DNA of 30,194 nucleotides. It comes from an uncultured Candidatus Saccharibacteria bacterium. GTDB lineage: Bacteria > Patescibacteriota > Doudnabacteria > UBA920. The stretch is from the NCBI GenBank assembly GCA_964407965.1, contig CAYOXN010000003.1:1-30194 (forward strand), read 5' to 3'. The notes under the pieces are model-generated. The model worked only from the letters and a program-made list of their open reading frames with translations, did not search any database and was not told the DNA's origin. Position numbers and translations under genes: made by a program. Each line of letters starts with the position of its first letter. Positions within the stretch are counted from its first letter, which is position 1. Shown piece by piece: positions 519 through 4,131 of the stretch.

Positions 519-547
519 ATTTTAGCAAAAATCCCCAAAAAGCACAA
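519..547 (-). promoter_or_regulatory. Putative sigma70 promoter for the DegT-like gene
   Basis: TTGTGC-N17-TAAAAT with extended -10 TG on the minus strand, about 65 nt upstream of ATG 453. Confidence 0.45.
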
Positions 548-583
548 AAAAAGCCGCGTAAAGCCATAAAAGACTTTCGCGGC
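546..583 (-). terminator. Rho-independent terminator after the membrane-protein gene
   Basis: Minus strand GCCGCGAAAG...CTTTACGCGGC stem followed by T7, 27 nt after stop at 611. Confidence 0.6.
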
Positions 584-610
584 GTACATCGGTAAGAGTC
601 GGCGGTAGGA

Positions 611-1306
611 TCACGCGTCCTTAGTTTTGGTGTCGCCGGGGTCAAAAAACTCAAAACCCCGAAATAGGGCATAGAGGAACGCCACGTAAACGAAGACTGC
701 ACACTCCAAAGTATTTTGCCAACACTTTGGTCTGTTGAGCGCCCACCACAGGACAGTTATGACTATGGCCGAAAAAAGCCACACCCCCAGCCATCCCCAG
801 TACGTAAAACTTGCCGGCGAAACGCCTAACCAGGGCAAGTAAACATCTGCAAAGCCAGTCAGCACAATCAGCGTCACAGCCGCTGCGACTAACTTTTCAA
901 ACCTGGAAAACGGTTTAGGGTCTAGGGCTATGTTTACACCGAACGTTACAGCCACTAATATTGGTACCACAGCAAACTCTGGACTAACGGAAAAGCCGAA
1001 CCGCTGCATTAGCGTGCCTATGGGCAAGCCTATCGCTGCCGCGCCTAGGTAATAAGCGCACAAAGCCACAGGCAAGTCCTCACTTTCCCAAACTGCCCAA
1101 AGGCAAGCCGCGGAGACTACCAAGCCTGCCAAGGGCACCCACAGGGTAGAATTAAGCGACTGGCTAACGCCTGTTAGGGCTAAAGTCACCGCCACTCCCG
1201 TGCCTAGCAAAAAACTAGTGGCTAAGACATATAACCCGCGCGGGAGAATGTTTTCCCGTGTATGAGCCGCGCTTTCGCGCAATCGGAACTGCTTTACAAC
1301 CCACAT
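611..1306 (-). CDS. Polytopic membrane protein, divergent Bax inhibitor-1/YccA-like
   Basis: 231 aa, about 7 hydrophobic segments; C-terminal GVWLFSAIV...NRPKCWQNTLECAVFVYVAFLYALF resembles the BI-1/YccA TM6-7 pattern. Starts 1 nt after the upstream stop. Confidence 0.55.
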   Translation of the reverse strand: MWVVKQFRLRESAAHTRENILPRGLYVLATSFLLGTGVAVTLALTGVSQSLNSTLWVPLAGLVVSAACLWAVWESEDLPVALCAYYLGAAAIGLPIGTLMQRFGFSVSPEFAVVPILVAVTFGVNIALDPKPFSRFEKLVAAAVTLIVLTGFADVYLPWLGVSPASFTYWGWLGVWLFSAIVITVLWWALNRPKCWQNTLECAVFVYVAFLYALFRGFEFFDPGDTKTKDA

Positions 1307-1307
1307 G

Positions 1308-1661
1308 TTAAAACCCTCTTTCCTTGAGTCTCTGCTGAATTTGTCGGCGCAAAGCCAGAAATTGGTTCACTCCAATTTCTTTGCGCAAGAATGCTTTCCC
1401 CAATTCTTGGGCATTTTCATACCCGTTTTCCTTTAAAACCTCGTCCGTAATTTCGGAGCGTTTTTTGTGGTATTCCTGGTCGCGTATATGAGCTAGGACA
1501 ACGGTACCGAGCCCATCACGCAATACGTAAAGAAGTTCGGGTTGGTCGTACTCCTGGCGCGACGCTTCCGGGTCCGTGCCCGGGATAACCAACTGCACAT
1601 CGCCAGGTGCCCTAAAAACTTCAGACACGCGGTATTTAAACCGCTCATTTTCCTTGTTCAT
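1308..1661 (-). CDS. Hypothetical soluble protein (117 aa)
   Basis: ORF with AAGGGGG RBS-like motif and upstream promoter; no recognised family. Confidence 0.75.
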   Translation of the reverse strand: MNKENERFKYRVSEVFRAPGDVQLVIPGTDPEASRQEYDQPELLYVLRDGLGTVVLAHIRDQEYHKKRSEITDEVLKENGYENAQELGKAFLRKEIGVNQFLALRRQIQQRLKERGF

Positions 1662-1681
1662 AGTTCCCCCTTGAACAGGTT

Positions 1682-1709
1682 ATTATACCTGAATCCCTAT
1701 ATTATTCAA
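1682..1709 (-). promoter_or_regulatory. Putative sigma70 promoter
   Basis: TTGAAT-N16-TATAAT, 20 nt upstream of ATG 1661. Confidence 0.6.
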
Positions 1710-1731
1710 GACCCATCTTTTATAGAAAATC

Positions 1732-1767
1732 CATATAATTTTTTCACATATGTGAAAAAATTATATG
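1732..1767. repeat. Perfect palindrome, copy 1 (36 bp, CATATA-arm type)
   Basis: CATATAATTTTTTCACATATGTGAAAAAATTATATG equals its own reverse complement. Confidence 0.97.
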
Positions 1768-1776
1768 AATACCCAT

Positions 1777-1820
1777 AAAAAAATAGGGAAACGGGCCGGT
1801 AATAACCGACGCGTTTCCCT
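1777..1820 (-). terminator. Rho-independent terminator after tandem-Nudix gene
   Basis: AGGGAAACG...CGTTTCCCT stem with inner pairing, then ATTTTTTT on the minus strand, 28 nt after stop at 1849. Confidence 0.7.
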
Positions 1821-1848
1821 TACGCTATTCCTCTACCCCCTTCCGTTT

Positions 1849-3113: not shown

Positions 3114-3142
3114 ATTATACAACAAATCCCCACCCCTGACAA
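3114..3142 (-). promoter_or_regulatory. Putative sigma70 promoter
   Basis: TTGTCA-N17-TATAAT upstream of the Nudix gene. Confidence 0.7.
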
Positions 3143-3182
3143 GGGCTTATCTAACTCTTTTTCTCCTCCTTTCCTTTCAACT

Positions 3183-3222
3183 TTTTTAGCATTTTTTCAC
3201 ATATGTGAAAAAATGCTAAAAA
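3183..3222. repeat. Perfect palindrome, copy 2 (40 bp, TTAGC-arm type)
   Basis: TTTTTAGCATTTTTTCACATATGTGAAAAAATGCTAAAAA is self-complementary. Confidence 0.97.
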
Positions 3223-3240
3223 TTTTATGTAGAGAAAATA

Positions 3241-3263
3241 AAAAAGCGGGACATGTGTCCCGC
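3241..3263 (-). terminator. Rho-independent terminator after HAD gene
   Basis: GCGGGACA-CA-TGTCCCGC followed by a T-run on the minus strand, 13 nt after stop at 3277. Confidence 0.65.
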
Positions 3264-3276
3264 TGGAAAGGTAATG

Positions 3277-3948
3277 CTAACGAAGTGATGGCGTATATGG
3301 AATGAGCTGCCGCAAGTAAATCTCCCAATGCAGCTCGCTCACCTTCTGCTTCCTCGCGTCGAAGCAAAAATGAGGTATGCGACAAATATTCGTACATTCG
3401 TCGCAGTGGCCCGGTAGATCGTCGACGTATAGGCTATTTCGCACATCGACGTTTTGTTCTTGTAACCACTTGCGAATGACTTGGGAGAAAATTTTCGGCT
3501 TTGTCGCCCCATGTTGGCAGGAAATAAAGTAGCGATGCACTTTTACCCCTCCCTCCGCCAGCAACAGGTTTAGGGCGTGAACGGAACAAAAGTCCCCGTT
3601 ACTGACCACAACAATCGGTGCCGTTACGCCACGCAGCACTTCTGCCACTTCCGGAATTAACCGAATATGACTTACGTACAGTGACGCAAACGCCTCAAAC
3701 GGCAACTTTGCTCGGTCCACCCCGGCCTCATCCGTCACTATTCGGTACAGATCATTAAGGTCAATCTCCCCCAGGTCAATCTTCCTGTAACGGGTTTCGG
3801 CCGGCTTGCCATCTGCCACGGGTTCAAACATCCGGCTAAGAGCTTCTGTCTTGCCGCCAAAAGACTTAACGATCTTCTCAAGCCACGCAGCGCGGTCGTT
3901 GAACGTGACCACAACATTGCCCAAGTCAATAAAAAGCATTTTTACCAC
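3277..3948 (-). CDS. HAD-superfamily hydrolase (YihX-like phosphatase)
   Basis: Motifs FIDLGNVV (I), VVVSN (II), KP (III), YVDD (IV); GTG start with AAGGAGG RBS. Confidence 0.8.
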   Translation of the reverse strand: MVKMLFIDLGNVVVTFNDRAAWLEKIVKSFGGKTEALSRMFEPVADGKPAETRYRKIDLGEIDLNDLYRIVTDEAGVDRAKLPFEAFASLYVSHIRLIPEVAEVLRGVTAPIVVVSNGDFCSVHALNLLLAEGGVKVHRYFISCQHGATKPKIFSQVIRKWLQEQNVDVRNSLYVDDLPGHCDECTNICRIPHFCFDARKQKVSELHWEIYLRQLIPYTPSLR

Positions 3949-3971
3949 AAGGCCTCCTTAAAAATCAAACC

Positions 3972-4000
3972 ATTATACCAATAAAGGCACAATAAGGCAA
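3972..4000 (-). promoter_or_regulatory. Putative sigma70 promoter
   Basis: TTGCCT-N17-TATAAT, 23 nt upstream of GTG 3948. Confidence 0.65.
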
Positions 4001-4042
4001 GACCCTTTGTCCAACATTATGTATTCTCTCAAAAACTAAATT

Positions 4043-4082
4043 TTCATATAATTTTTTCACATATGTGAAAAAATTATATGAA
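4043..4082. repeat. Perfect palindrome, copy 3 (40 bp, CATATA-arm type)
   Basis: TTCATATAATTTTTTCACATATGTGAAAAAATTATATGAA is self-complementary. Confidence 0.97.
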
Positions 4083-4103
4083 TTTAACTTTATTTATCTC
4101 AAT

Positions 4104-4131
4104 AAAAAACAAGGCCTTGGTAAGGCCTTGT
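4104..4131 (-). terminator. Rho-independent terminator ending the sugar-biosynthesis operon
   Basis: ACAAGGCCTT-N3-AAGGCCTTGT stem, then T-run on the minus strand, about 20 nt after stop at 4153. Confidence 0.65.

Follow-up and report, generated by a model that had tools for sequence, protein, structure and literature searches.

Two kinds of genome organisation relevant here are already known: palindromes that are dispersed through a genome and have a cognate gene, and accessory units of modular build. Repetitive extragenic palindromic (REP) sequences and bacterial interspersed mosaic elements (BIMEs), with their REP-associated tyrosine transposases (RAYTs), stand for the first kind (PMC3184786; bioRxiv 10.64898/2026.03.23.713779), and the dif modules of Acinetobacter plasmids for the second, with self-expressed accessory modules lying between short symmetric sites and the recombinase encoded elsewhere (PMC6449649, PMC13141974). 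Here we analyse a 30,194-nucleotide stretch of DNA (the window; contig CAYOXN010000003.1, here C3) from an uncultured bacterium placed by GTDB in the Doudnabacteria, in which three transcription units in a row are each headed by a copy of a perfect palindrome that we call PAL. Genomes of the candidate phyla radiation (CPR), or Patescibacteria, are tiny, with almost no characterised regulation and few recognisable mobile elements. We find that PAL recurs across this genome with an invariant core and co-varying arms, that it brackets a gene for a small PaaX-like protein (mini-PaaX), and that one of the three PAL-headed units was gained as a block. It looks as if newly acquired genes were being marked, and perhaps controlled, in a way not described before.

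Anatomy and origin of the three units

The genome of the window (G000) comprises 1.12 Mb at 45.5% G+C and is 95% complete, and the window's proteins have their homologues mainly in Candidatus Doudnabacteria and other Patescibacteria. An earlier note on this DNA had described a minus-strand succession of intrinsic terminator, palindrome, near-consensus sigma-70 promoter and gene or genes, three times in a row, and all of these elements lie where it placed them. The chain sits between the epimerase (5031-4153) and DegT (453-1) genes of a nucleoside-diphosphate-sugar cluster, both on the minus strand and both solid Pfam matches. Read along that strand, the intrinsic terminator of the epimerase and sugar operon (4109-4131, from its fold) is followed by PAL3 (4043-4082; centre 4062.5, arm type A), a promoter-like TTGCCT-17-TGnTATAAT (3972-4000) and a HAD-like ORFan (3277-3948; 223 aa, or 220 aa from the ATG at 3939) with its own intrinsic terminator (3245-3264). 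PAL2 (3183-3222; centre 3202.5, a type-B variant) then precedes TTGTCA-17-TATAAT (3114-3142) and a gene for a double Nudix-like protein (1849-3003; likely ATG at 3003 giving 384 aa, frame open to 3060), which ends in a terminator at about 1777-1820 (-24.7 kcal/mol, then a U-run). PAL1 (1729-1770; centre 1749.5, type A) and TTGAAT-16-TATAAT (1682-1709) head a two-gene unit that encodes a 117-aa protein with no Pfam or NCBIfam family (1308-1661) and a 231-aa polytopic membrane protein, weakly Bax1-I-like and of 53% G+C (611-1306), and that closes with a hairpin and U7 at about 546-583.

All four array terminators fold as a G+C-rich hairpin followed by a U-run in RNA folding, the predicted promoter-like sites score 10/12 (with a TG), 11/12 and 10/12 at 4000-3972, 3142-3114 and 1709-1682, and each unit has its own predicted promoter, ribosome-binding site and terminator. 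The 22-mer core of PAL, TTTTTTCACATATGTGAAAAAA, occupies 1739-1760, 3192-3213 and 4052-4073 in the array and recurs in the window at 24570, 25282 and 28574, six perfect copies against none in 100 shuffles; as single strands, PAL1-3 fold with z = -7.7 to -8.2 relative to shuffles. From palindrome centre to the 5′ edge of the -35 box we measured 62.5 bp (PAL3), 60.5 bp (PAL2) and 40.5 bp (PAL1), which bears out the earlier estimate of about 40-62 bp.

The HAD unit records a gain. Three Logan metagenome samples that are 96% identical to the window over the thiamine pyrophosphate-enzyme and epimerase genes do not contain the HAD gene: their epimerase terminator runs directly into the PAL2-type spacer and left arm, not into the PAL3-side spacer, and the spacer upstream of PAL2 is the one that follows the epimerase terminator in close relatives. 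Compared with these 96%-identical relatives the window carries an extra block of about 865 bp (from about 4110 to 3247), made up on the minus strand of spacer, PAL3, promoter, gene and terminator stem (3247-4110, edges approximate), with the end of the HAD terminator stem as its proximal edge. A T-rich direct repeat, TTTTTTATT, lies at both edges, within which their exact positions are approximate, and both junctions fall in terminator T-tracts 17-28 bp from PAL3 and not in PAL. Because the HAD gene is missing from the outgroups, insertion is the parsimonious direction, and these alignments indicate a real and recent block insertion. Among 5.8 billion proteins the HAD-like protein matches only itself (cluster size 1), and its label rests on sub-threshold NCBIfam matches. 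A PAL-promoter-gene-terminator block that is new relative to such close relatives, beside a conserved sugar operon, amounts to a concrete unit of genome change.

The order of units might instead have been created in assembly, by the joining of contigs at a repeated PAL. Logan contigs and contigs of G001, a relative of the same genus, break at PAL, and a cluster search found the HAD and 384-aa Nudix genes only on the window contig. We regard this as the most improbable of the explanations considered: close relatives depart from the window at a T-tract and a unique spacer that both lie outside PAL, a pattern that contigs wrongly joined at PAL could not produce, 13 of the 15 PALs in G000 are internal to contigs, and the segment from PAL1 through the 117-aa and 231-aa genes to DegT is reproduced in three independent samples.

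The Nudix unit has another history. In G024, a relative from another genus that has no PAL, epimerase, Nudix, Nudix and DegT genes are contiguous and the first Nudix gene overlaps the epimerase gene; in G039, again from another genus and again with no PAL, Nudix, Nudix and DegT are contiguous. Since relatives lacking PAL have Nudix genes between epimerase and DegT, the position of the Nudix unit is ancestral and part of the sugar cluster. In G001 a Nudix-like gene of 172 aa comes after the epimerase gene, and beyond it lie a terminator and, at the contig end, PAL. The window allele fuses two domains that G024 and G039 encode in two neighbouring genes, has 55% G+C against 45.5% for the genome and its own promoter and terminator, and is 35% identical to the G001 gene and 48-51% to those of G024. 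At 16.9 bits the window protein is a weak Nudix match that stays below the cut-off, which its G024 homologue passes. A second Nudix-like gene, 37% identical, is present at C26:1442-1927 of G000.

The two-gene unit is lineage-specific in its turn. A search with the 117-aa protein recovered it neither from G001 nor from 40 relatives; this protein has one homologue, at 91% identity, in three Logan samples, and the 231-aa protein has 90%-identity cluster mates in Logan samples and, in G001, only a 24% match elsewhere in the genome. The unit occurs together with PAL1 and its promoter in three Logan samples at 96% identity, with the promoter-like sequence conserved and PAL1 lying at the ends of the three contigs. 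G001 contig C20 aligns to window positions 1-550, and homology with G001 resumes at the T-tract of the terminator at 546-583.

The proposal that autonomous expression units accumulated at a hotspot thus stands in part: each unit has its own predicted signals, two of the three are lineage-specific and the HAD unit is an insertion of about 865 bp, but the Nudix unit holds an ancestral position. The earlier note had named in advance, as the outcome that would speak against it, the same gene order in relatives lacking the palindromes, and this order was found in G024 and G039 for the Nudix unit alone. Its epimerase and DegT labels are solid; its Nudix label falls below the cut-off in the window protein and its HAD label finds sub-threshold matches only.

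A genome-wide palindrome with an invariant core

PAL had been taken for an element of the array. In the whole G000 assembly its core occurs 15 times, always perfect and always intergenic, and is tied to the mini-PaaX gene; searching for a 14-mer of the core with one or two mismatches returned nothing in G000, so that the family is without decayed copies. Each PAL reads as a perfect palindrome over 36-44 bp, of which the central 20-22 bp are invariant, and its outer arms vary among copies while remaining Watson-Crick complementary within a copy. The arms are of type A (...CATATAA), type B (...TTCTTAGCA) or a few others, and within G000 only the site C7a has non-matching arms. Similarity between copies is limited to 40-50 bp, with no shared flanks or duplications beyond; PAL3 and its surroundings are identical over 50 bp to a copy on contig C7, and in a BLAST comparison of the three modules with G000 and G001 PAL is the only repeated part. 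The same core is present in G001 (six copies) and in G006, a relative from a different genus (two copies). Five G000 sites have G001 orthologues with an identical core and compensatory arm changes, where coding DNA is only about 70-77% identical, and for a sixth an orthologue is probable. Scans with a 20-mer recovered six stretches in public genome contigs and seven in metagenome contigs, mostly chance matches in A+T-rich DNA without palindromic arms. At C10:12372-12493 and C7:21200-21322 of G000 a type-A PAL comes 79-80 bp after a type-B PAL; the C10 pair lies between two convergent terminators of genes with no G001 counterpart, and G001 contigs break there.

We aligned 26 sites from G000, G001, G006, G013, G014, one Doudnabacteria metagenome-assembled genome and one metagenome contig. 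Columns 17-36 are invariant, and pairs 9-16 change two-sidedly, with unpaired cells and one-sided or G-U states nearly absent; the covariation score is 0.322, compared with 0.119 for shuffles and 0.07-0.11 for slid registers. Co-variation that is Watson-Crick-only and strand-symmetric points to a constraint on the DNA rather than on an RNA structure, as would arise if a duplex site has to be symmetric, if a cruciform or hairpin forms, or if the copying itself is symmetric. This weighs against a role of PAL as RNA, in which a 3′-untranslated or intercistronic hairpin would stabilise or terminate read-through transcripts or be processed in them. PAL does fold strongly as RNA (-19 to -20 kcal/mol), and at 28584, 25292 and 24580 it is the only hairpin after the stop codon; the array PALs, by contrast, lie beyond canonical terminators and upstream of the next promoter, and no consistent U-run follows PAL. 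We therefore consider an RNA function very unlikely.

Three more specific identities were tried and rejected. The core resembles the parS halves TGTTTCAC and GTGAAACA with four extra central bases, but its half-sites are spaced differently, and a search of the G000 assembly for canonical parS, TGTTTCACGTGAAACA, that allowed up to two mismatches found none. A -10 element in the arms (TATAAT, TAGCAT and TATCAT occur in G000 arms) fails on the arms of G006, G013 and G014, which have no TAnnnT, and on upstream -35 boxes, which are mostly missing. An intrinsic terminator does not suit an A+T-rich stem with its T-run inside the stem and a separate canonical terminator before it.

With the predicted start taken as 7 nt past the -10 box, the array PAL centres lie near -74.5, -95.5 and -97.5. 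A further copy (28568-28601), orthologous in G001, is centred at 28584 near -85.5, 51.5 bp upstream of the -35 box of a promoter, TTGACA-16-TGnTATATT, that is conserved in G001; the G001 orthologue lies 62.5 bp from the -35 box, near -96.5, across an unrelated spacer that is 11 bp longer. The spacing at these four promoters and the shift in G001 are compatible with binding on one helical face. Every PAL copy adjoins the 3′ end of a gene, and divergent neighbours have no PAL locus between them, against about two expected from a background of 481 tandem, 139 convergent and 126 divergent regions; the sole universal rule of placement is a transcription-unit boundary beside a 3′ end. Conserved PAL sites also precede a dinB-like polymerase gene and relA/spoT. 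At the latter, about seven degenerate TAAGATGA-like repeats, which G001 does not have, lie between PAL and the gene (C37:6800-6940, L193), and the predicted -10 box (TGGTAAAAT) is 8-9 nt before the annotated ATG in both G000 and G001, so close that the mRNA may be leaderless or the start mis-set. The G006 relA/spoT homologue (C8, about 981-2490; L026) is in two frames (ORFs 1300-2490 and 981-1367), by either a frameshift or an assembly error.

The genes beside PAL are variable, in a way that is suggestive and not decisive. Genes that are both absent from G001 and high in G+C are over-represented there (odds ratio 3.9, p = 0.03), absence from or divergence in G001 alone gives an odds ratio of 2.0 (p = 0.12), and the enrichment of G001-absent genes is marginal overall (p = 0.04-0.12). 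At one orthologous site (C9 in G000, C27 in G001) the abutting gene differs, encoding 175 aa in one and 91 aa in the other. On the G000 contig C9, at 4851-4888, a different palindrome family (CAAATACTCCAATACT-acag-AGTATTGGAGTATTTG) lies between a terminator and PAL, two families being stacked at one boundary.

Variable genes beside conserved PALs, the succession of module, PAL and module, and the enrichment just given are what would be expected if PAL were a site-specific recombination site at whose core modules are swapped, as in integrons or dif modules. Candidate enzymes exist, since a search of the genome for recombinases recovered one Xer-like tyrosine recombinase (PF00589, on C44; best models XerC and XerD) and one large serine recombinase, and the mini-PaaX gene is enclosed by an exact direct repeat of 47 bp. 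None of these enzymes, nor either of two RAYT-like genes in G000, is near any PAL, and the 30-kb window, in which the earlier note had seen no integrase, contains no recombinase. Crossover in the core between type A and type B would leave hybrid arms, and none occur among the PAL sites, which counts against recombination; the HAD junctions, moreover, lie outside the PAL core. The proteins of G000 include no integron integrase (TIGR02249, 124 bits against a cut-off of 265), and PAL has neither the 11-6-11 plan of dif nor the R''-L''...L'-R' plan of attC. Recombination at PAL is in our assessment unlikely.

A PaaX-like protein as the candidate partner

Two of the window's further PAL copies (24559-24602 and 25271-25314) are identical and bracket the mini-PaaX gene (24601-25263, minus strand), whose product is the candidate PAL-binding protein. 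Mini-PaaX has 220 aa, with a transmembrane helix, a winged helix and a Cas2-like domain, and matches PaaX_M (PF20803) at E 4.9e-10. In an AlphaFold model (41 homologues, pLDDT 83.5) a pair of hydrophobic helices at the N terminus is followed by a winged helix and a ferredoxin-like domain, and Foldseek ranks E. coli PaaX (8a39) first (E 2.6e-5), followed by MarR and PadR winged helices and Cas2; a sequence search against PDB chains gave nothing useful, and the fold search alone was informative. Asp141 is invariant in an ADIP motif of the homologues, which we read as resembling the YDI motif of Cas2. A search for literature linking PaaX-like proteins with Cas2 or with Patescibacteria found none.

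The pairing of palindrome and protein recurs. PAL flanks the mini-PaaX gene in G000, in G001 (C18) and in a third species of the genus (L199), and in G006 it adjoins the gene on one side, so that PAL goes with a PaaX-like gene in four genomes. Paralogues keep palindromes of their own: one on C17 of G000 is bracketed by a palindrome with the core GTTCGCAATTGCGAAC (seven copies), its orthologue on C2 of G001 has the same core, a third paralogue on C8 of G001 has yet another palindrome (five copies), and the distant homologues L164 and L166 are bracketed by theirs. Where counted, in G000 and G001, these paralogue-specific palindromes are dispersed in 5-7 copies each. At C17:7981-12774 (L188) five GTTCGCAATTGCGAAC palindromes, one in each intergenic gap, separate genes for an APH-like kinase, the second mini-PaaX, unknown proteins, a phosphoenolpyruvate (PEP)-utiliser mobile domain and PPDK_N, among PPDK and PEP-utiliser genes. 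Palindrome-separated gene rows thus recur at paralogue loci, and the window array is one instance of them. From this co-occurrence we infer that mini-PaaX binds PAL, and the inserted HAD block would then carry a site matching a specific small putative DNA-binding protein.

The explanation that we tentatively favour, at somewhat less than an even chance, is that PAL is a strand-symmetric site for mini-PaaX that heads, or is copied to, accessory transcription units and couples or insulates them. A mini-PaaX dimer would bind PAL symmetrically, either as duplex or as an extruded cruciform; in the array it would sit about 75-97 bp upstream of the predicted starts, on roughly the same helical face, and could bring accessory genes that are otherwise unrelated under shared control, or shield them from adjacent genes. 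Modules would be gained as blocks directly past the hairpin of an existing terminator. How PAL affects transcription and how its copies arise are speculative parts of this proposal. The earlier note's own alternative, a regulator site upstream of the promoters, is at least as likely as its cassette reading. If PAL is a portable operator, new genes would be wired into an existing regulon on arrival.

Several observations pull the other way. At four of 13 PAL loci (24580, C10, C18 and C46) the flanking genes converge and no promoter is near, in G013 and G014 a single PAL-like site each occurs without any mini-PaaX homologue, and in G006 the PAL near relA follows the gene, at its 3′ end. Between species, the spacing of PAL and the conserved promoter-like block shifts by 47 bp at relA and by 17 bp at the dinB-like gene, both out of helical phase, so the phasing argument rests on four promoters. 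The main weakness is that a plain duplex operator explains neither the complementarity of the arms nor the perfect core in every copy.

Both are explained by the main rival, in which PAL is a REP-like, essentially selfish repeat that is copied as a hairpin, is tolerated beyond terminators and does nothing for its neighbours; it would be mobilised or maintained by mini-PaaX, by way of the Cas2-like domain, or in trans by a RAYT-like Y1 enzyme, and the array would show where copies survive. The hairpin-type constraint on the arms, the subfamilies A and B, with exact matches of 40-50 bp between copies from different contigs, the place of each copy beside a 3′ end and never between divergent genes, and a mini-PaaX gene bracketed by its own repeat in the manner of REP-RAYT-REP all fit, as does the invariant Asp141, on our reading of its motif. 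The setting fits too. The 1.1-Mb genome is unusually rich in perfect palindromes, with at least seven further families of 30-50 bp (for example at C30:7354-7398, C66:119-163, C4:6853-6893, C9:11573-11620, C47:9043-9083, C8:15868-15915 and C86:56-443), among them GAGAAGGGCATCTTCTC-n-GAGAAGATGCCCTTCTC in about ten copies and a family of about 12 copies in which only a CGGCCG centre is conserved between variable arms of 18-21 bp. Two RAYT-like Y1 genes (C30:6698-7369 and C84:440-1006), both below the NCBIfam cut-off, have no PAL, and the one on C30 abuts a copy of the GAGAAGGGCATCTTCTC palindrome, with which it is possibly a classical REP/RAYT pair in a CPR genome. The selfish reading is burdened by the low copy number without decayed copies, by a core that orthologous sites share unchanged between species and even between genera, which speaks for selection through the host, and by the lack of a RAYT-like gene beside PAL and of target-site duplications around solo copies. 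Members of the PaaX family are regulators, and no Cas2-like domain is known to act as a transposase; an activity unprecedented for a PaaX/Cas2-like protein would be needed, and PAL3 came with a promoter and a gene, not alone. We judge this repeat reading distinctly less probable than the mini-PaaX site, and yet the most serious of the alternatives.

If PAL is a mobile hairpin handled by a Cas2-like domain, it would represent a new partnership of protein and repeat. The boldest form of this idea is doubtful: mini-PaaX would belong to a new class of hairpin- or cruciform-specific DNA enzymes that copy their own palindrome and move or capture palindrome-tagged modules, a CPR cassette system distinct from integrons, dif modules and REP/RAYT. 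Under the operator and the mobile-hairpin reading alike, the several private palindrome families offer a ready-made code of protein-DNA specificity for in-vitro work.

Comparison with described systems

One close likeness is to REP/BIME-RAYT systems. Shared features are short extragenic palindromes after genes, a placement that all 15 PALs have, together with hairpin-type co-variation, subfamilies within a genome and a cognate gene bracketed by its own repeats. Unlike the Y1 (HUH) gene flanked by REP repeats, the gene flanked by PAL encodes a PaaX-type protein with winged helix and Cas2-like domain; PAL also has 15 copies instead of hundreds, with no decayed ones, a core kept perfectly across species, an A+T-rich stem and no GTAG-type flank. 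Miniature inverted-repeat transposable elements differ as well, in that the PAL unit of 40-50 bp is palindrome throughout, with no interior bounded by terminal inverted repeats and no target-site duplication found.

Like the array, integron cassettes stand in a row that runs in one direction, with a single gene and a structured palindromic site to each unit, and the earlier note had called the layout integron-like. That comparison does not carry beyond layout. No IntI lies near the array; attC sites have conserved ends (R''/L''...L'/R') and a variable centre, PAL the reverse, with its invariant 20-22 bp centre and variable arms; and cassettes are promoterless and read from Pc, whereas the array units have their own predicted promoters and terminators. 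Dif modules likewise form rows of discrete self-expressed modules separated by short symmetric sites, but a pdif site is a 28-bp XerC-6-XerD sequence, on which plan PAL cannot by inspection be laid (11-6-11). Ten bases of PAL resemble a XerD arm, only in a register in which the arms would overlap, and we rejected this layout. The sole datable module junction, that of the HAD unit, is not at PAL, and A/B hybrids are missing; the lack of IntI, the reversed attC plan, the units' own promoters, the T-tract junction and the absence of hybrids place the array outside integrons, and it falls outside dif modules as well.

Among regulators, class I activator sites (CRP at -61.5, -72.5, -82.5 and -92.5) share with PAL a palindromic, dimer-type site upstream of the -35 box at spacings about one helical turn apart. 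PAL centres lie further out (about -75 to -97), a third of PAL sites have no nearby promoter, and the phase is not kept at relA or dinB. The phenylacetyl-CoA-responsive repressor PaaX of E. coli W (8a39), the best structural match, has the same order of a winged helix and a Cas2-like middle domain, and a palindromic site beside its own gene would fit autoregulation. Mini-PaaX differs in its length of about 220 aa, its N-terminal hydrophobic helix and its lack of a PaaX_C domain, and PAL, presumably unrelated in sequence to the E. coli PaaX operator, lies at transcription-unit boundaries, convergent ones included, with no paa operon. What is new against this background is the partner protein, the combination of an invariant centre with co-varying arms, and a PAL-headed module caught as an insertion.

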